Under the pieces are notes generated by a model. The model was given only the letters and a program-made list of their open reading frames with translations, was not told the DNA's origin and ran no database searches. A DNA stretch of 39,875 nucleotides from a virus, in the UHGV virus genome UHGV-0200725; one strand, given 5' to 3'. Shown piece after piece: positions 1-39,875 of this stretch (its first letter is position 1; every line of letters begins with the position of its first letter). A program made the position numbers and the translations under genes.

Positions 1-309
1 TTGGGTAGGATGAAAATGGATATAACACCCTTACTTCATGCACTTTGTGCTGTGGCTGCGCAGCTACTGATTGGTCTTTTTACCGGGAACTGGGCTTACG
101 GAGCGATAGCCGGTTGTACGTTCTTCATTGCGCGTGAACACACCCAGGCAGAATATCGCTGGATTGAAATGTTCGGACATGGCAAGCGTATGAATATGCC
201 GTGGTGGGGCGGTTTTGATCCGCGCGTGTGGGATTTGGCAAGCCTTATGGATTTTTCTGTGCCAGTGGTGGCGTGTCTGCTGGTCTGGCTGTTGATCCGT
301 TCAACATAA
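1..309 (+). CDS. 3' part of a gene for a small hydrophobic (probable inner-membrane) protein; likely host flank or boundary gene, 5' end outside window
   Basis: Frame open from position 1 to TAA at 307-309; translation has two hydrophobic helices; no family recognised. Confidence 0.3.
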   Translation: MGRMKMDITPLLHALCAVAAQLLIGLFTGNWAYGAIAGCTFFIAREHTQAEYRWIEMFGHGKRMNMPWWGGFDPRVWDLASLMDFSVPVVACLLVWLLIRST

Positions 310-28138: not shown

Positions 28139-29556
28139 TGCCGATTCAGCAACTTCCGCTTATGAAAGGTGTCGGCAAAGACTTCCGAAACGCCGACTAT
28201 ATCGACTATCTGCCAGTGAATATGTTGGCTACACCAAAAGAAATCCTTAACAGCAGCGGATATCTTCGCTCATTCCCGGGCATTGCCAAACGTTCTGATG
28301 TGAACGGCGTATCGCGTGGCGTCGAGTACAACATGGCGCAGAATGCTGTTTATCGCGTGTGTGGTGGCAAGCTGTACAAAGGCGAAAGTGAAGTCGGTGA
28401 TGTTGCCGGAAGTGGTCGCGTATCAATGGCACATGGTCGGACATCACAGGCGGTAGGTGTTAACGGGCAACTGGTCGAATACCGCTATGATGGCACGGTT
28501 AAAACCGTCTCAAACTGGCCTACAGACAGCGGATTCACGCAGTATGAGTTAGGTTCTGTTCGTGACATTACTCGCTTACGTGGGCGTTATGCGTGGTCAA
28601 AAGACGGCACTGATTCATGGTTTATTACTGACCCTGAAGATGAATCGCACCCTGACCGCTACAGCGCACAATATCGCGCAGAATCGCAGCCGGACGGAAT
28701 CATCGGCATCGGAACATGGCGAGACTTCATCGTCTGCTTTGGTTCATCGACGATTGAGTATTTCTCCCTGACTGGCGCAACCACAGTTGGTGCTGCTTTG
28801 TATGTCGCACAGCCATCACTGATGGTGCAAAAAGGCATCGCCGGGACTTACTGCAAAACTCCATTCGCTGATTCTTATGCGTTCATCAGCAATCCGGCAA
28901 CAGGTGCGCCGTCTGTGTATATCATCGGCTCCGGGCAGGTGTCACCAATCGCCAGCGCGAGCATTGAGAAAATCCTCCGCTCCTACACTGCTGATGAACT
29001 GGCTGATGGCGTGATGGAATCGTTGCGCTTTGATGCTCATGAGCTGCTGATTATCCATCTTCCGCGCCATGTTCTGGTGTACGACGCATCTTCAAGCGCC
29101 AATGGTCCGCAATGGTGTGTACTGAAAACAGGCCTGTATGACGATGTGTACCGCGCTATCGACTTCATTTACGAAGGCAATCAGATAACGTGCGGCGATA
29201 AGCTGGAATCGGTGACCGGGAAATTGCAGTTCGATATCAGTAGTCAGTATGGGCTACAGCAAGAACACCTGCTGTTTACTCCGTTGTTCAAAGCGGATAA
29301 CGCCAGAGTTTTCGACCTTGAAGTTGAATCGTCAACTGGCGTTGCGCAGTACGCCGACCGCCTGTTCCTCTCTGCAACCACTGACGGCATCAATTACGGG
29401 CGTGAGCAGATGATTGAGCAGAATGAACCGTTCGTTTACGACAAACGCGTTTTGTGGAAGCGAGTAGGGCGCATCAGGAAAAATGTTGGCTTCAAATTGC
29501 GCGTTATCACGAAGTCACCTGTAACTCTGTCTGGCTGCCAGATAAGGATTGAGTAA
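28138..29556 (+). CDS. 10: Tail accessory protein (P22 gp10-type)
   Basis: 472-aa ORF, same length and position as P22 gp10. Confidence 0.85.
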
Positions 29557-30509
29557 TGGCTGATTCGAATCTCAATGAGCCAGTAATCATCCAGGCTACG
29601 CGGCTCGATACATCAGTCCTTCCACGCAATATCTTCTCTCAGTCGTATCTGCTTTACGTTATTGCACAGGGTACTGATGTTGGTAATGTGGCTAACAAGG
29701 CCAACGAAGCAGGGAAGGGGGCTTATGATGCACAGGTGAAGAATGATGAGCAGGATGTCACCCTTGCAGACCATGAATCCAGAATTGAAACTGCTGAAGC
29801 AACTCTCATCAATCATGAACATAGAATCTCAGCAGCGGAAAGCACTCTTGCAGATCATGAAACAAGGATTACGGCTGCCGAAACAGAGCTGGCTGATCAC
29901 GAGACGCGAATTGCTGCCAATGAATCTGAGTTAGCAAACCATGATGCGCGAATAACTCAGAATACAACCGATATCAACGCACTTGATACCAGGCTCACAG
30001 CGGCAGAGGGAAGTATTTCGACGCTACAAAGCACAGTTGGTGATCACTCAACAAGAATATCTGCGCTTGAGTATGCCACCACGCGCAAGAAATCAGAGGT
30101 TGTTTACTCAGGAGTATCGGTAACCATTCCAACAGCGCCTACCAACCTTGTTAGCCTGCTGAAAACGCTCACGCCGTCATCAGGCACGTTGGCACCATTC
30201 TTCGACACCGTTAACAACAAGATGGTTGTGTTCAACGAGAACAAAACCCTGTTCTTCAAGCTGTCGATTGTCGGGACGTGGCCCAGCGGAACCTCCAACA
30301 GGTCAATGCAGCTAACATTTTCCGGTTCTGTACCTGACACACTGGTAAGCAGTCGTAACTCGGCGACAACAACCGATAACATCCTGTTAGCTACGTTCTT
30401 CAGCGTGGATAAAGACGGCTTTCTTGCCACAAATGGCAGCACGTTAACCATTCAGTCAAATGGGGCGGCGTTTACTGCCACAACCATCAAGATAATCGCG
30501 GAGCAGTGA
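29556..30509 (+). CDS. 26: Tail needle (P22 gp26-type) with extended coiled coil and C-terminal knob
   Basis: 317-aa ORF; N-terminus matches gp26; five tandem 14-residue heptad-pair repeats ([14 protein letters not shown] / [13 protein letters not shown] / [14 protein letters not shown] / [14 protein letters not shown] / [14 protein letters not shown]); about 150-residue beta-rich C-terminal domain. Confidence 0.8.
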
Positions 30510-34947: not shown

Positions 34948-35337
34948 TTAACATTTTCTTTTTACTTTTCCAACAAAAGCTTTGGTTGAATCCATATTCC
35001 CATAACCAGAAATGGTTTTCGACATTAAAACTGTTCCATTAGGATGTATTACCCATGAGTCGATAACTCGTTGAGTTTCGCCATTCGCGCCGATTCCAAT
35101 GATGGAGTTTTTAGACAATGCTTTGTAAGCCATGCCGCCCGCATCCGTCCCAGAATATGTGATACTGGCATCTTCACCGTTTGTCTTAATGATGAATGTT
35201 CCACTAAAACCATCTTCTTCCGGTTGAAAATTATTTCGTTCTGAATAGCTTATTCCGTGCATATCTCCAACGACCCAGCACTCTGCTGAGACAGAAAACG
35301 AGAAGACAAGGAAAGCCATTGCTATAATCAATTTCAT
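34948..35337 (-). CDS. Secreted hypothetical protein (129 aa) with signal peptide, distal gene of the mnt operon
   Basis: N-terminal MKLIIAMAFLVFSFSVSA then ECWVV; Cys near both ends of the mature protein; beta-rich; convergent with gene 16 (24-nt gap). Confidence 0.65.
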   Translation of the reverse strand: MKLIIAMAFLVFSFSVSAECWVVGDMHGISYSERNNFQPEEDGFSGTFIIKTNGEDASITYSGTDAGGMAYKALSKNSIIGIGANGETQRVIDSWVIHPNGTVLMSKTISGYGNMDSTKAFVGKVKRKC

Positions 35338-35352
35338 TTTAAGCCCTTATTG

Positions 35353-35688
35353 TTATTGATTCTTTTTGCACGGAAATGTTTTTCCTACTGCTAGGGCGGT
35401 TAGTATAACTGCACTCTCATTTCTTGATTCTGGGTTTTTGTTTAGATATTTCTCAACGATATCGGTGTATTGATACATGTCAACGCCATCAGGAGGACAT
35501 AGAGAACCAATTAGTATCAATGAGTCAGTTACTCCGCGCAAATATCCAGTAATGTAAAGCGATGAAAAATCATCACCCTTTTTACCTTGTTGAATGTTGT
35601 AAAGAAGGTCATTACCCGTTTGAAGCTCGCGCAGCTCAGCACTGGAAGAAGAGACAACTGCTAACAAGAACAGTGATAGAAATCTCAT
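35353..35688 (-). CDS. Secreted hypothetical protein (111 aa) with signal peptide, translationally coupled to mnt
   Basis: ATG 35688-35686 overlaps the mnt TGA; N-terminal MRFLSLFLLAVVSSSSA; two Cys in mature protein; helical character. Confidence 0.65.
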   Translation of the reverse strand: MRFLSLFLLAVVSSSSAELRELQTGNDLLYNIQQGKKGDDFSSLYITGYLRGVTDSLILIGSLCPPDGVDMYQYTDIVEKYLNKNPESRNESAVILTALAVGKTFPCKKNQ

Positions 35689-37138: not shown

Positions 37139-37157
37139 CAGATAACCAACGCAACGA

Positions 37158-37180
37158 CCCAGCTTCGGCTGGGTTTTTTT
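37158..37180 (+). terminator. Rho-independent terminator after ant
   Basis: CCCAGC-TTCG-GCTGGG followed by TTTTTTT. Confidence 0.8.
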
Positions 37181-37238
37181 ATGCCCAAAATTCACCGTAG
37201 CCACGCTGCGGCGATTCCTTGTATCTGGAGCAAATTAA

Positions 37239-39311
37239 ATGACAGACATTACAGCCAATGTTGTAGTGAGCATGCCTTCGCAACTCTTCACTATGGCTCG
37301 TTCTTTTAAAGCCGTAGCCAATGGCAAAATCTATATCGGTAAAATTGACACTGACCCGGTAAATCCTGAAAACCAGATTCAGGTTTATATAGAGAACGAA
37401 GACGGTTCTCACGTTCCTGTTTCGCAACCAATCATCATTAATGCGGCTGGTTACCCGGTATATAACGGACAGATTGCCAAGTTCGTAACTGTGCAAGGCC
37501 ATTCGATGGCTGTTTATGATGCATACGGTGTGCAGCAGTTCTATTTTCCTAATGTGCTGAAGTATGACCCGGATCAGTTGCGACAGCAATTATTAAACCC
37601 TGACACTGGCCTAGGAGATGCGCTTGTTATTGTTAAACAGCCATATGCTGATTCTGTACCTATTACTCAACATCAGCACAACACCTATCTCCTTACCCCT
37701 TACCACTTCGGAGCAAAGGGAGATGGTATTGCAGATGACACTCTTGCCCTAAACCGCTGGTCCAATTGCGGAGCTAAGGTACTCTATTGGCCAGCAGGAA
37801 AATATCTGGTGAGCCCTACAAATGGTGTTTCTCTGGATATGGATAACTACCATACAGGGGATTCCGCACTAACGGCGTGCGTAACCGTTCCCTATGGCGT
37901 GAAAATTTATACGGCTGGGACAGAAACCCAGTTATGCGTGAAGGATGCTGACTCAGCATCGACCGTAGGTCTGGCCGTTAGCTACCCGGAGTCAAGTTAT
38001 TCCCAGGGAGAAACCGACATCGGAAAATTCATGATTCGCCTGGAAAACGGAAATGGTCGGTACGGTATTCTTACTCCACTCAGGGAGGAAATGTTCACTG
38101 CGCACCGGGCGAAGTTCAAATTAGGAGCGCATTTCGGTCCTCAACAGGGGCGTGATGACCTGACGGTGCTACAGTATTCGTGGGTAAATGGCATGCTGAT
38201 TGGCGACGCTTTTAGCGGCTCAGTGCATGTCACTGGATACGGCAGCTATAACGTGCAGCAGGTTGAAGGTACGCAATTCCAGTGCGTGGCCGTTAAGATG
38301 AAGTCCGTTCGAGGTAACGTAGGTGTAGACATCAGATTCAACACAAACAACTGGTGGAAGTTTGTCGAACTGAGTGACGGCGTTGAAGGGTTTGTTGTCA
38401 AGGACAGCGAAGGGCTTGGGGCATTTGTTGGAATCGACCTAACCAACCCAGCCAGCGAGCCAGGTGGATTTATCGATAACGTACACGTCAACGTTAAGCA
38501 AAACGGAGTACGAGCCAGAAACAGGCCATCCCTGCAAATCGGAAACATTGAAGTCTATAAAAGTGATGGATTTGCCACTGACCTTGTTTACGATGCGGTG
38601 CTTCTGGTTGACTGCCAGGAAGTGACTATCAACTCTATTCACGCAATCGTCGGCAACTCAATCACAAATGCTCAGTCAGTAGTTAACTCGACAAACAGCA
38701 CATTCCGCCTGAACTCATACTTTGCGCAAAACATCAGGTTCGTCGATTTTGTGGTTAATAGCCCTGACTGCTATGTCGGAGAGGGGACAATTAACCAGGT
38801 CGAGGCAGTTCACTCACTTTCTGGATCACAAAGCAACGACTTCCACGGTAGTGATGTTCTGGTTAGATCCTACAGAAACAACGTTCGCCCACTTTACGCA
38901 GTGATGGATTCCGCTTTCAACAGGGCAAGGGCGAGGTTTCCACAAAATACAAGCCTCCAGGTGAGAACCTTTCTCGACTACACTGTGGCAGCAGCTGGGA
39001 CTTTAACAATAGAACCAAGGCTTGACCCCTCCAGGTACTACATCATCATGAGTGCTGGTACAGGTGCCTTCACCTATTCAATTGAGCTGGATAAAGTGTC
39101 TGCCGTAGTTGGTGATATTGTTTACATAAAGATAGCCGGGTCATCATCTGCTAACCCAACAGTTTTGGTTAAAAATGGTATTGGTGGGACAACGCTCAGC
39201 ACATTCAATAATATCGGTCCGATTCGTTTGAATTGTGCTTACAGATTTAATGAGTCAGGTAACTGGGTGGCCTACTACATTACCCAAAGCGTTGAAACCA
39301 CTTATGGCTAA
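37239..39311 (+). CDS. 9: Tailspike: P22 gp9-type head-binding N-terminal domain with a divergent receptor-binding body
   Basis: 690-aa ORF; first roughly 115 residues ([11 protein letters not shown]...VLKYDPDQ) match the P22 tailspike head-binding domain; remainder is Gly/Asn/Val-rich beta-helix-like sequence unlike P22. Confidence 0.85.
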
Positions 39312-39490
39312 TAGTCATTATCAATATCCTGCAGAAGTGACCTAACGACAAGCGTCGCCACGATGACAACCACGGAAAGGATGCCGATAACCCACCACAT
39401 AACTTACCCGCGCAAAATGAATGGACAAAAATCATCCGCCGATTAACCCTAAGCTTTGCATATTTTTTGAAGATGTGACTGTTGTGTGGC

Positions 39491-39531
39491 AAAAAATTAG
39501 CGCAAGAGGACAAAAAATCACCTTGCGCTAA
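39491..39531 (-). terminator. Possible rho-independent terminator on the minus strand
   Basis: 10-bp inverted repeat TTAGCGCAAG / CTTGCGCTAA with 15-nt loop; T-run follows on the minus strand (A-run 39491-39496 on plus). Confidence 0.35.
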
Positions 39532-39668
39532 TGCTCTGTCTCAGGTCACTAATACCATCTAAGTAGTTGATTCATAGTGACTGGATATGTTGTGTTTTGT
39601 CGCGTTTTGCAGTCTATTATTTAATCATTAAGTAATCTAATGCTATGATTTTTAAATTATTTATGTGA

Positions 39669-39848
39669 TTTTGTCATCCTTTAGGTAAAGAAGGTGAACG
39701 GTATTACACTGTAGATTATTCTGGTGTTACTGGCTTGCTTGTTCAGGTAGCCAGAGAGTCAGACGACAGAATAACAGCACTGGAAGAAGAAAACGCAGAA
39801 TTAAGACAAATGTTATCTGCAATTGAGGCGGCGCTTGCGTCTAAATAA
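39669..39848 (+). pseudogene. 3' remnant of a tail-fibre/tailspike gene: C-terminal part of an intramolecular-chaperone (peptidase S74-like) domain, no start codon
   Basis: 59 in-frame codons after a TGA with no initiator; translation ...GERYYTVDYSGVTGLLVQVARESDDRITALEEENAELRQMLSAIEAALASK resembles chaperone-domain C-termini as I recall them. Confidence 0.35.
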
Positions 39849-39854
39849 TATTAA

Positions 39855-39875
39855 GGGGCCGAGCGCCCCGTTTTA
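39855..39875 (+). terminator. Rho-independent terminator after the remnant (cut by window end)
   Basis: GGGGC-CGAGC-GCCCC followed by GTTTTA. Confidence 0.5.

Follow-up and report, generated by a model that had tools for sequence, protein, structure and literature searches.

A chimeric P22-like tailspike with a mobile beta-helix module, probably specific for O139 Escherichia coli

Introduction

What does a P22-like tailspike recognise, and which chemistry does it perform, once the whole of the protein behind its particle anchor has been exchanged? This question is raised by the tailspike gene at the right end of the virus genome UHGV-0200725, a stretch of 39,875 nucleotides that is referred to here, at its full length, as the window, and that is the complete genome of a P22-like temperate podovirus of Escherichia coli. 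A sequence-only reading of the locus had described the gene product as a chimera, formed by a P22-type head-binding domain and an unrecognised receptor-binding body. Chimeric tailspikes are textbook knowledge in P22-like phages and this kind of swapping is itself well known; the present gene is an unusually clean case of exchange of the receptor-binding domain (RBD), with a junction of ~10 nucleotides and five anchor types. In the present study we locate the junction, describe the fold and the family of the body, and propose that it represents an uncharacterised family of beta-helix RBDs which is probably O139-specific. O139:H1 strains of E. coli are the cause of porcine edema disease.

Results

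The tailspike gene (37239..39311, + strand) appears in the list of open reading frames (ORFs) as a single long intact frame, with an ATG start and 690 codons followed by a stop, and thus encodes a complete protein of 690 residues. Residues 1-113 (37239..37577, +) form a P22-type head-binding, or particle-anchoring, domain, recognised both by Pfam and by the N-termini of P22, Sf6 and HK620-type tailspikes in the PDB. The Pfam family PF09008 (Head_binding) is matched at profile positions 1-113 of 113 with an E-value of 4.3e-67 and 223.9 bits (gathering cut-off 24), and the PDB matches include residues 1-114 of the P22 tailspike (8tvr_A, E 3e-50) and the Sf6 tailspike (7sg7_A, E 6.5e-75). In the alignments of the PDB search the identity over the 113 residues is 77% to P22 and 92% to Sf6, confirming the close resemblance to the P22 head-binding domain that had been read from the first ~115 residues. 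These matches place the tailspike in the PF09008 anchor family. The window also encodes a P22-type tail hub, with PF11650 (P22_Tail-4, gp4), PF11134 (Phage_stabilise, gp10) and an Sf6-type needle knob (PF16532). By analogy with the head-binding domains of P22, Sf6 and HK620, the protein is presumed to be a homotrimer.

The remainder of the protein was claimed to be unlike the P22 endorhamnosidase body, and this holds true. Full-length P22 tailspike chains (8tvr_A and 2xc1_A) match query residues 1-114 only in a sequence search of the PDB and nothing beyond; at the level of sequence the body is thus unlike the P22 endorhamnosidase. The origin of this discontinuity can be seen at the nucleotide level. 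Against a P22-type tailspike gene with a different body (E. coli F11), blastn aligns gene nucleotides 1-365 at 94% identity, and against an epsilon15-type tailspike gene (E. coli EC5654) it aligns nucleotides 376-2073 at 99%. In window coordinates the P22-type homology stops at 37603 and the body homology begins at 37614. Since the two homologies abut within ~10 nucleotides, the junction is this interval of ~10 nucleotides at residues 122-126, within the linker of residues 114-125 (37578..37613, +) defined by the same two comparisons and immediately before the motif GDALV.VKQPY. This motif opens the neck, which was delimited by alignment to residues 126-152 (37614..37694, +), and it is common to every anchor variant and to Sf6 in the alignments.

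The same body, at 66-99% identity, is found on at least five anchor types including the P22-type. It occurs on an epsilon15/phiV10-type anchor (P0001, 97-99% identical), on a PF18668 TSP1/Gp66-type anchor (P0003, 82%), on a fibre anchor of the MFHIDNKSG type (P0004, 66%) and on an Ala-rich coiled-coil anchor in a 49-kb IMG/VR contig (L028, 88%), whilst remoter relatives of the body (33-42% identical) are joined to T7-fibre-type, DUF2793 and other anchors. The abutting homologies at nucleotides 365 and 376, together with the occurrence of one body on five anchor types, demonstrate the chimeric architecture and the receptor-module swapping that the sequence-only reading had suggested.

We then consider the relatives of the body. 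When residues 121-690 are compared with Sf6, phmmer aligns body residues 2-129 only (E 4e-6), and hhalign of the family profile against Sf6 gp14 aligns Sf6 residues 149-239 only, with a probability of 94%. Thus the first ~130 residues of the body, comprising the neck and the N-terminal cap (N-cap) of the helix, appear weakly homologous to the Sf6 tailspike; membership of the body in the Sf6-like endorhamnosidases was considered and rejected, as hhalign aligns the N-cap only. The helix cap also gives a match to PF12708 below the gathering cut-off and weak matches to PHROG tail proteins, which are confined to it, and the body is without any match in NCBIfam. No place in the 50,697 phage records of INPHARED covers 80% of the protein, the sole match to the body being an unverified faecal contig with 26.5% identity. 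A profile search of the PDB with an alignment of 36 sequences found no relative of the catalytic region and no match to the conserved block described below; all the significant matches correspond to the cap motif FGAKGDG..DD, which is present in GH55, AlgE, Sf6 and others. A high similarity of the whole protein to a characterised tailspike of known specificity, named beforehand as the observation that would refute this reading, was not found, as no PDB, Pfam, NCBIfam or INPHARED entry covers the body.

An AlphaFold2 monomer model of residues 121-690, built from an alignment of 11 sequences, shows a mean predicted local distance difference test (pLDDT) of 87.6 and a predicted template-modelling score (pTM) of 0.84. 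The model consists of an ill-defined neck of low confidence (pLDDT 40-53), a long run of short strands (approximately residues 153-556) and a C-terminal domain of nine strands. The run of strands is predicted to form a right-handed parallel beta-helix (37695..38906, +), starting with the N-cap motif that is weakly matched by PF12708, and superposes on solved beta-helix enzymes and tailspikes, in agreement with the beta-helix body that had been anticipated. In Foldseek the alginate epimerase and lyases rank at the top with Sf6 and HK620 lower, and the closest solved folds, at 8-15% identity, are the AlgE4 epimerase, the K5 and K1 lyases and the HK620 tailspike. The nine-strand beta-sandwich at the C-terminus (residues 575-690; 38961..39308, +) may cap the trimer or provide accessory binding, in the manner of the C-terminal domains of Sf6 and HK620. 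The sandwich is also found in stand-alone proteins of 130-275 residues (P0177, P0181, P0186, P0188, P0193, P0194 and P0196) and carries the motif AG.GAYTYNIDLD...GD...I....SsNPT..(I/V)R.GSGG.

As far as sequence searches can tell, the body family is small and coherent. When 1.84 billion representative proteins were scanned exhaustively with HMMER, 277 hits were obtained at E<=1e-3, of which 55 reach <=1e-10 and 19 reach <=1e-30; a survey of one genome per GTDB species gave a single remote relative, in Paenibacillus oceani (33% identity), and a scan of IMG/VR gave five loci only. Conservation was scored over 52 family representatives, down to ~25% identity. The most conserved block, residues 380-441 (38376..38561, +), holds the candidate catalytic or substrate-binding residues: E383 and H416 are present in all 52 representatives, E391 and Y440 in 50, N418 in 48 and R429 in 46, with Lys replacing it in three more. 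Upstream of the block, D323 and Q346 are kept in 44-45 of the 52. E391, H416 and Y440 are spaced by 24-25 residues, which is about one rung of the helix in the strand pattern of the model, and these three probably stack along one face of the helix. Charged and polar residues kept unchanged in relatives as remote as ~25% identity are characteristic of an active site and not of a purely structural helix. Together with the fold and the location in a tailspike, the E/E/H/N/R/Y set is indirect evidence for a putative polysaccharide depolymerase.

The hosts of the module were explored by megablast in 5,426 complete E. coli genomes. The body is present in 21 of them, 18 with the P22-type gene and three with nucleotides 394-2073 only, corresponding to the epsilon15-type version. 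With the wzy of the O139:H1 strain W13-16 as the query, O139 wzy was found in 20 of the 5,426 genomes, and 18 of these 20 carry the body against three of the 5,406 others (Fisher p ~1e-46, with carriers largely of one lineage). Among the 18 carriers with O139 wzy, 16 have the P22-type version and two the epsilon15-type. Two unrelated phage types thus bear the module in O139 hosts, a P22-like phage at ybhB/bioA and an epsilon15-like phage at yfgI. Furthermore, the exact 690-residue protein is encoded in 47 public contig blocks (24 contigs read), with at least five different immI gene arrangements as neighbours. The two phage types and the at least five immI arrangements argue against pure hitch-hiking of the module with its hosts. 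It is from the association with O139 hosts that the claim of a different glycan specificity draws its support. The tailspike gene is split by a 1-nucleotide deletion in EC556, EC571 and EC581, and in P0123, a product of prophage decay, the N-terminus of gp16 is fused to the last ~190 residues of the tailspike.

Outside O139 there are three carriers. In PEC41 (O132; NZ_CM168023.1, 29800-40652) the integrase, the early-left genes and an intact tailspike gene are kept and the virion genes are gone; O132 was considered as an alternative host serogroup and rejected, because only PEC41 among eight O132 genomes has the gene, in a remnant. CFSAN018748 (NZ_CP028192.1, 2346000-2372000) bears a window-like P22 variant at sbcB/dacD. 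Its galF, rfbB and rfbD proteins are identical to those of W13-16, and from rfbA on a different O-unit cluster follows, ~55 kb from the prophage, with wecB and an EpsG-type polymerase and with no O139 wzx/wzy. Backbone proteins identical to O139:H1 next to different O-unit genes suggest an O-antigen switch after lysogeny. EC5654 (O4; NZ_CP095086.1, 1911000-1935000) is a pks-positive human vaginal isolate with the epsilon15-type version; its rfbA is frameshifted and its O-antigen may be altered.

That RBDs cluster by serogroup is an established rule for phage genera such as Lederbergvirus and Uetakevirus, as described by Pas et al. 2023 (PMC10408124); the main text of that paper mentions neither 'O139' (0 occurrences) nor the present RBD family. 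No characterised O139 coliphage tailspike was found in a literature search; phage SU7 (Kuravirus) infects O139 with a different receptor-binding protein. The O139 repeat is described as a branched heptasaccharide of glucose, N-acetylglucosamine, rhamnose (Rha) and galacturonic acid (GalA) in the ratio 1:1:4:1 (Marie et al. 1998, in the form cited by PMC4906484), with a backbone of six residues (PMC11267873) and a branch at Rha (PMC3394015). In a published synthesis of the O139 unit, Rha is joined to O4 of a galactose or galacturonic acid residue, Gal(A) (PMC4906484).

The surroundings of the gene are those of a P22-like genome. A ribosome-binding site, GGAG (37228..37231, +), is read 7 nucleotides before the ATG, and a consensus scan gives a putative terminator, a hairpin with a T-run (37156..37185, hairpin 37156-37175, +), which separates the upstream antirepressor gene from the tailspike gene. 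The virion genes of the window are those for the terminase, the P22 portal, the P22 coat, gp4, gp10 (990 bits), an Sf6-type needle with knob and gp20, followed by gp16, an immI-like region (a Rap1a-like gene, arc/mnt-type genes and a 292-residue Bro-N/P22_AR_C antirepressor) and the tailspike at the right end. The needle (gp26 homologue, 317 residues; 29556..30509, +) ends in the Sf6-type C-terminal knob PF16532 (E 3e-107) and not in a short P22 tip. Between gp16 and the mnt/arc genes lies an ORF of 111 residues (35353..35688, -) matching PF18602, Rap1a, a type VI secretion immunity protein (E 1e-14), adjoined by an ORF of 129 residues with no family match (34948..35337, -); the Rap1a-like ORF may be a moron shielding the lysogen from type VI secretion effectors.

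In a 39,930-bp ENA metagenome scaffold the identical tailspike protein is followed by the first ORF of the window and then by an integrase, from which it follows that the window is a circularly permuted phage contig. Downstream of the tailspike, a stretch of ~210 bp (39487-39696) is 88.6% identical to an HK022-type attP and represents the attachment site of the P22-like genome; some related prophages that bear the same tailspike are found at sbcB/dacD and others at the lambda site next to ybhB/bioA. Positions 39683-39875, continued at window positions 1-309, hold the 3' end of a side-tail-fibre gene of lambdoid type, which phages Tritos and 2G7b match at 96-98% identity. The gene ends in AELRQMLSAIEAALASK and a stop and is followed by a membrane-like ORF of 97 residues at the start of the window. 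The circular permutation of the contig explains why this fragment continues past the first position of the window; it is unexpected in a podovirus and forms no part of the tailspike. Positions 39683-39875 were considered as a scar of module replacement and rejected, being a side-tail-fibre 3' end next to the HK022-type attP that is common to other phages, and they are no evidence of the swap.

Discussion

On balance, and with restrained confidence, we propose that the gene encodes a functional P22-like tailspike, which binds and destroys the receptor and whose swapped beta-helix module is a hydrolase acting on the O139 O-antigen. In this mechanism the head-binding domain would plug the presumed homotrimer onto the tail hub of gp4, gp10 and gp26 encoded in the window. 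From residue ~126 onward the protein is a horizontally mobile module, formed by the neck, the beta-helix of ~400 residues and the C-terminal sandwich, and recombination at the conserved GDALV.VKQPY neck motif joined it to the anchor. The groove of the beta-helix would bind long chains of O-antigen, the Rha- and GalA-rich O139 polymer being the most likely target, and cleave them endolytically, allowing the virion to work down to the outer membrane. E383 and E391 are the most likely catalytic carboxylates of a glycoside hydrolase with an endorhamnosidase-like activity, and H416, N418, R429 and Y440 may line the groove on the next rungs. Tailspikes directed at Rha-rich O-antigens, such as those of P22, Sf6 and epsilon15, are endorhamnosidases. 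A hydrolase was taken as the leading mechanism because the two invariant glutamates fit this chemistry and because Rha-rich O-antigens are classically cut by endorhamnosidase tailspikes.

Several observations weigh against this proposal. The catalytic region shows no homology to any characterised hydrolase, as hhalign against Sf6 and the profile search of the PDB recover the N-cap only, and the spatial clustering of the conserved residues is deduced from the rung periodicity alone. The carriers are mostly porcine strains of the O139:H1 type, so that the association is partly clonal. To these are added the three carriers outside O139: PEC41, where the gene lies in a remnant without virion genes; CFSAN018748, with an O139-type galF/rfbB/rfbD backbone and other O-unit genes; and EC5654, which is the clearest exception.

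The conserved residues, as read from the family alignment, fit a hydrolase or a lyase, and the protein appears to fall outside every characterised catalytic family. A polysaccharide lyase acting on the same antigen, by beta-elimination at the alpha-L-Rha-(1->4)-alpha-D-GalA bond, is thus a serious alternative, although a less probable one. H416, Y440 or R429 would act as base or acid, and the carboxylate would be neutralised by N418 and R429 or by a Ca2+ held by E383 and E391. Such a reaction is favoured by His, Tyr, Arg and Asn residues that are invariant or nearly so in the body family and by structural neighbours that are epimerases and lyases; however, the identity to these neighbours is only 10-15%, and the two invariant glutamates are equally typical of hydrolases. 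Moreover, the AlgE catalytic motif YG(F/I)DPH(D/E) is missing: the protein has no DPH tripeptide, and none of the 52 family members has G[FIVL]DPH. On the side of the substrate, an O139 strain has a gene for an NAD-dependent epimerase adjoining ugd, as would suit the synthesis of GalA. GalA is part of the O139 unit and, as Rha is attached to O4 of Gal(A) in the synthesis, the Rha-(1->4)-GalA bond would be eliminable, with the limit that this linkage is deduced from the synthesis paper (PMC4906484) and not from the primary structural one. We regard it as rather doubtful, though worth stating, that the body is the founding member of a novel family of beta-helix lyases, whose active site uses His/Tyr/Arg/Asn without a metal (or a Glu-held Ca2+), and acts as a rhamnogalacturonan-lyase-like tailspike, and that escape by switching of the O139 antigen may occur, possibly in CFSAN018748.

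The target itself may be a different surface glycan, for example colanic acid, a K antigen or a structure linked to the core, with the link to O139 reflecting clonal hitch-hiking of prophages within a single porcine lineage. The non-O139 carriers (O132, O4 and one other O-type) and the relatedness of most O139 carriers, which are porcine strains, would be expected in that case, and both a weak match to phrog_8280, 'tail spike protein with colanic acid degradation activity' (E 1.4e-3), and the Phi92 colanidase among the Foldseek matches point in the same direction. We consider it unlikely, since two unrelated phage types bear the same module in O139 hosts, the identical protein is found in mosaically different prophages, and only one of eight O132 genomes has the module, in a remnant copy. 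A sole tailspike with specificity for colanic acid would not be confined to 21 of 5,426 genomes, and RBDs cluster by serogroup in these phage genera (PMC10408124). The possibility that the body is a non-catalytic adhesin, or belongs to a decaying prophage gene without current function, finds some echo in the beta-helix adhesins PfbA and Vag8 among the structural neighbours, in three Japanese O139 genomes with a frameshifted copy (a 2,072-nucleotide match in two coding sequences) and in the deletion remnants PEC41 and P0123. It is nevertheless very improbable, given an ORF that is intact inside a complete virion module, an exact protein that recurs in 47 public contig blocks, and charged and polar residues that are invariant to ~25% identity over 52 representatives.

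The O139-specific module, if confirmed as such, would provide a ready-made reagent for detection of the serogroup, a part for engineering phages or tailocins against O139:H1, and a source of defined O139 oligosaccharides for vaccines. Furthermore, since the catalytic part of the body family is without a Pfam, NCBIfam or PDB representative, a single biochemical characterisation would annotate the whole family.

Compared with known systems, the protein appears to work like the tailspikes of P22, Sf6, HK620 and epsilon15, although its sequence places it outside the body families of P22 and Sf6. With P22 gp9, an endorhamnosidase, it shares a head-binding domain of 77% identity, a gene location behind the immI (arc/ant) region, at the prophage's right end, a comparable terminator-like context upstream of gene 9 and the same tail-hub partner genes, whereas past residue 114 the search shows no sequence similarity and the receptor module is another one. 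The endorhamnosidase gp14 of Sf6 (2VBK, 4URR, 7SG7) resembles it further, with a head-binding domain of 92% identity, the neck GDA(L/M).VKQP, a weakly homologous N-cap, a helix followed by a C-terminal beta-sandwich and a Rha-rich O-antigen as the target, which for the present protein is probable; past the cap, however, neither phmmer nor hhalign aligns the helix, and the residues E366/D399, presumably the Sf6 catalytic pair, have no aligned counterpart in the present body. The HK620 tailspike, an endo-N-acetylglucosaminidase specific for O18A1, differs in a body of 10% identity, in its O-antigen and in its catalytic residues. AlgE4, the mannuronan C5-epimerase (A-module, 2PYG), and AlgE6 share the N-cap motif FGA.GDG..DD; AlgE4 and the coliphage K5A lyase KflA (2X3H) are only 13-15% identical to the body, and AlgE4 is a secreted bacterial enzyme and not a virion protein. 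The tailspikes of epsilon15/phiV10-type E. coli prophages (P0001; EC5654, ETEC1748 and ETEC4069; IMG/VR L027) match the body from residue ~126 to the C-terminus at 97-99% but carry in their N-terminal ~220 residues an anchor of their own, 59-83% identical to epsilon15, phiV10 and TL-2011b, in prophages that integrate at yfgI. This arrangement is like that described by Pas et al. 2023 (PMC10408124), where anchors track the phage genus, RBDs track the O-serogroup of the host and the exchange takes place across genera.

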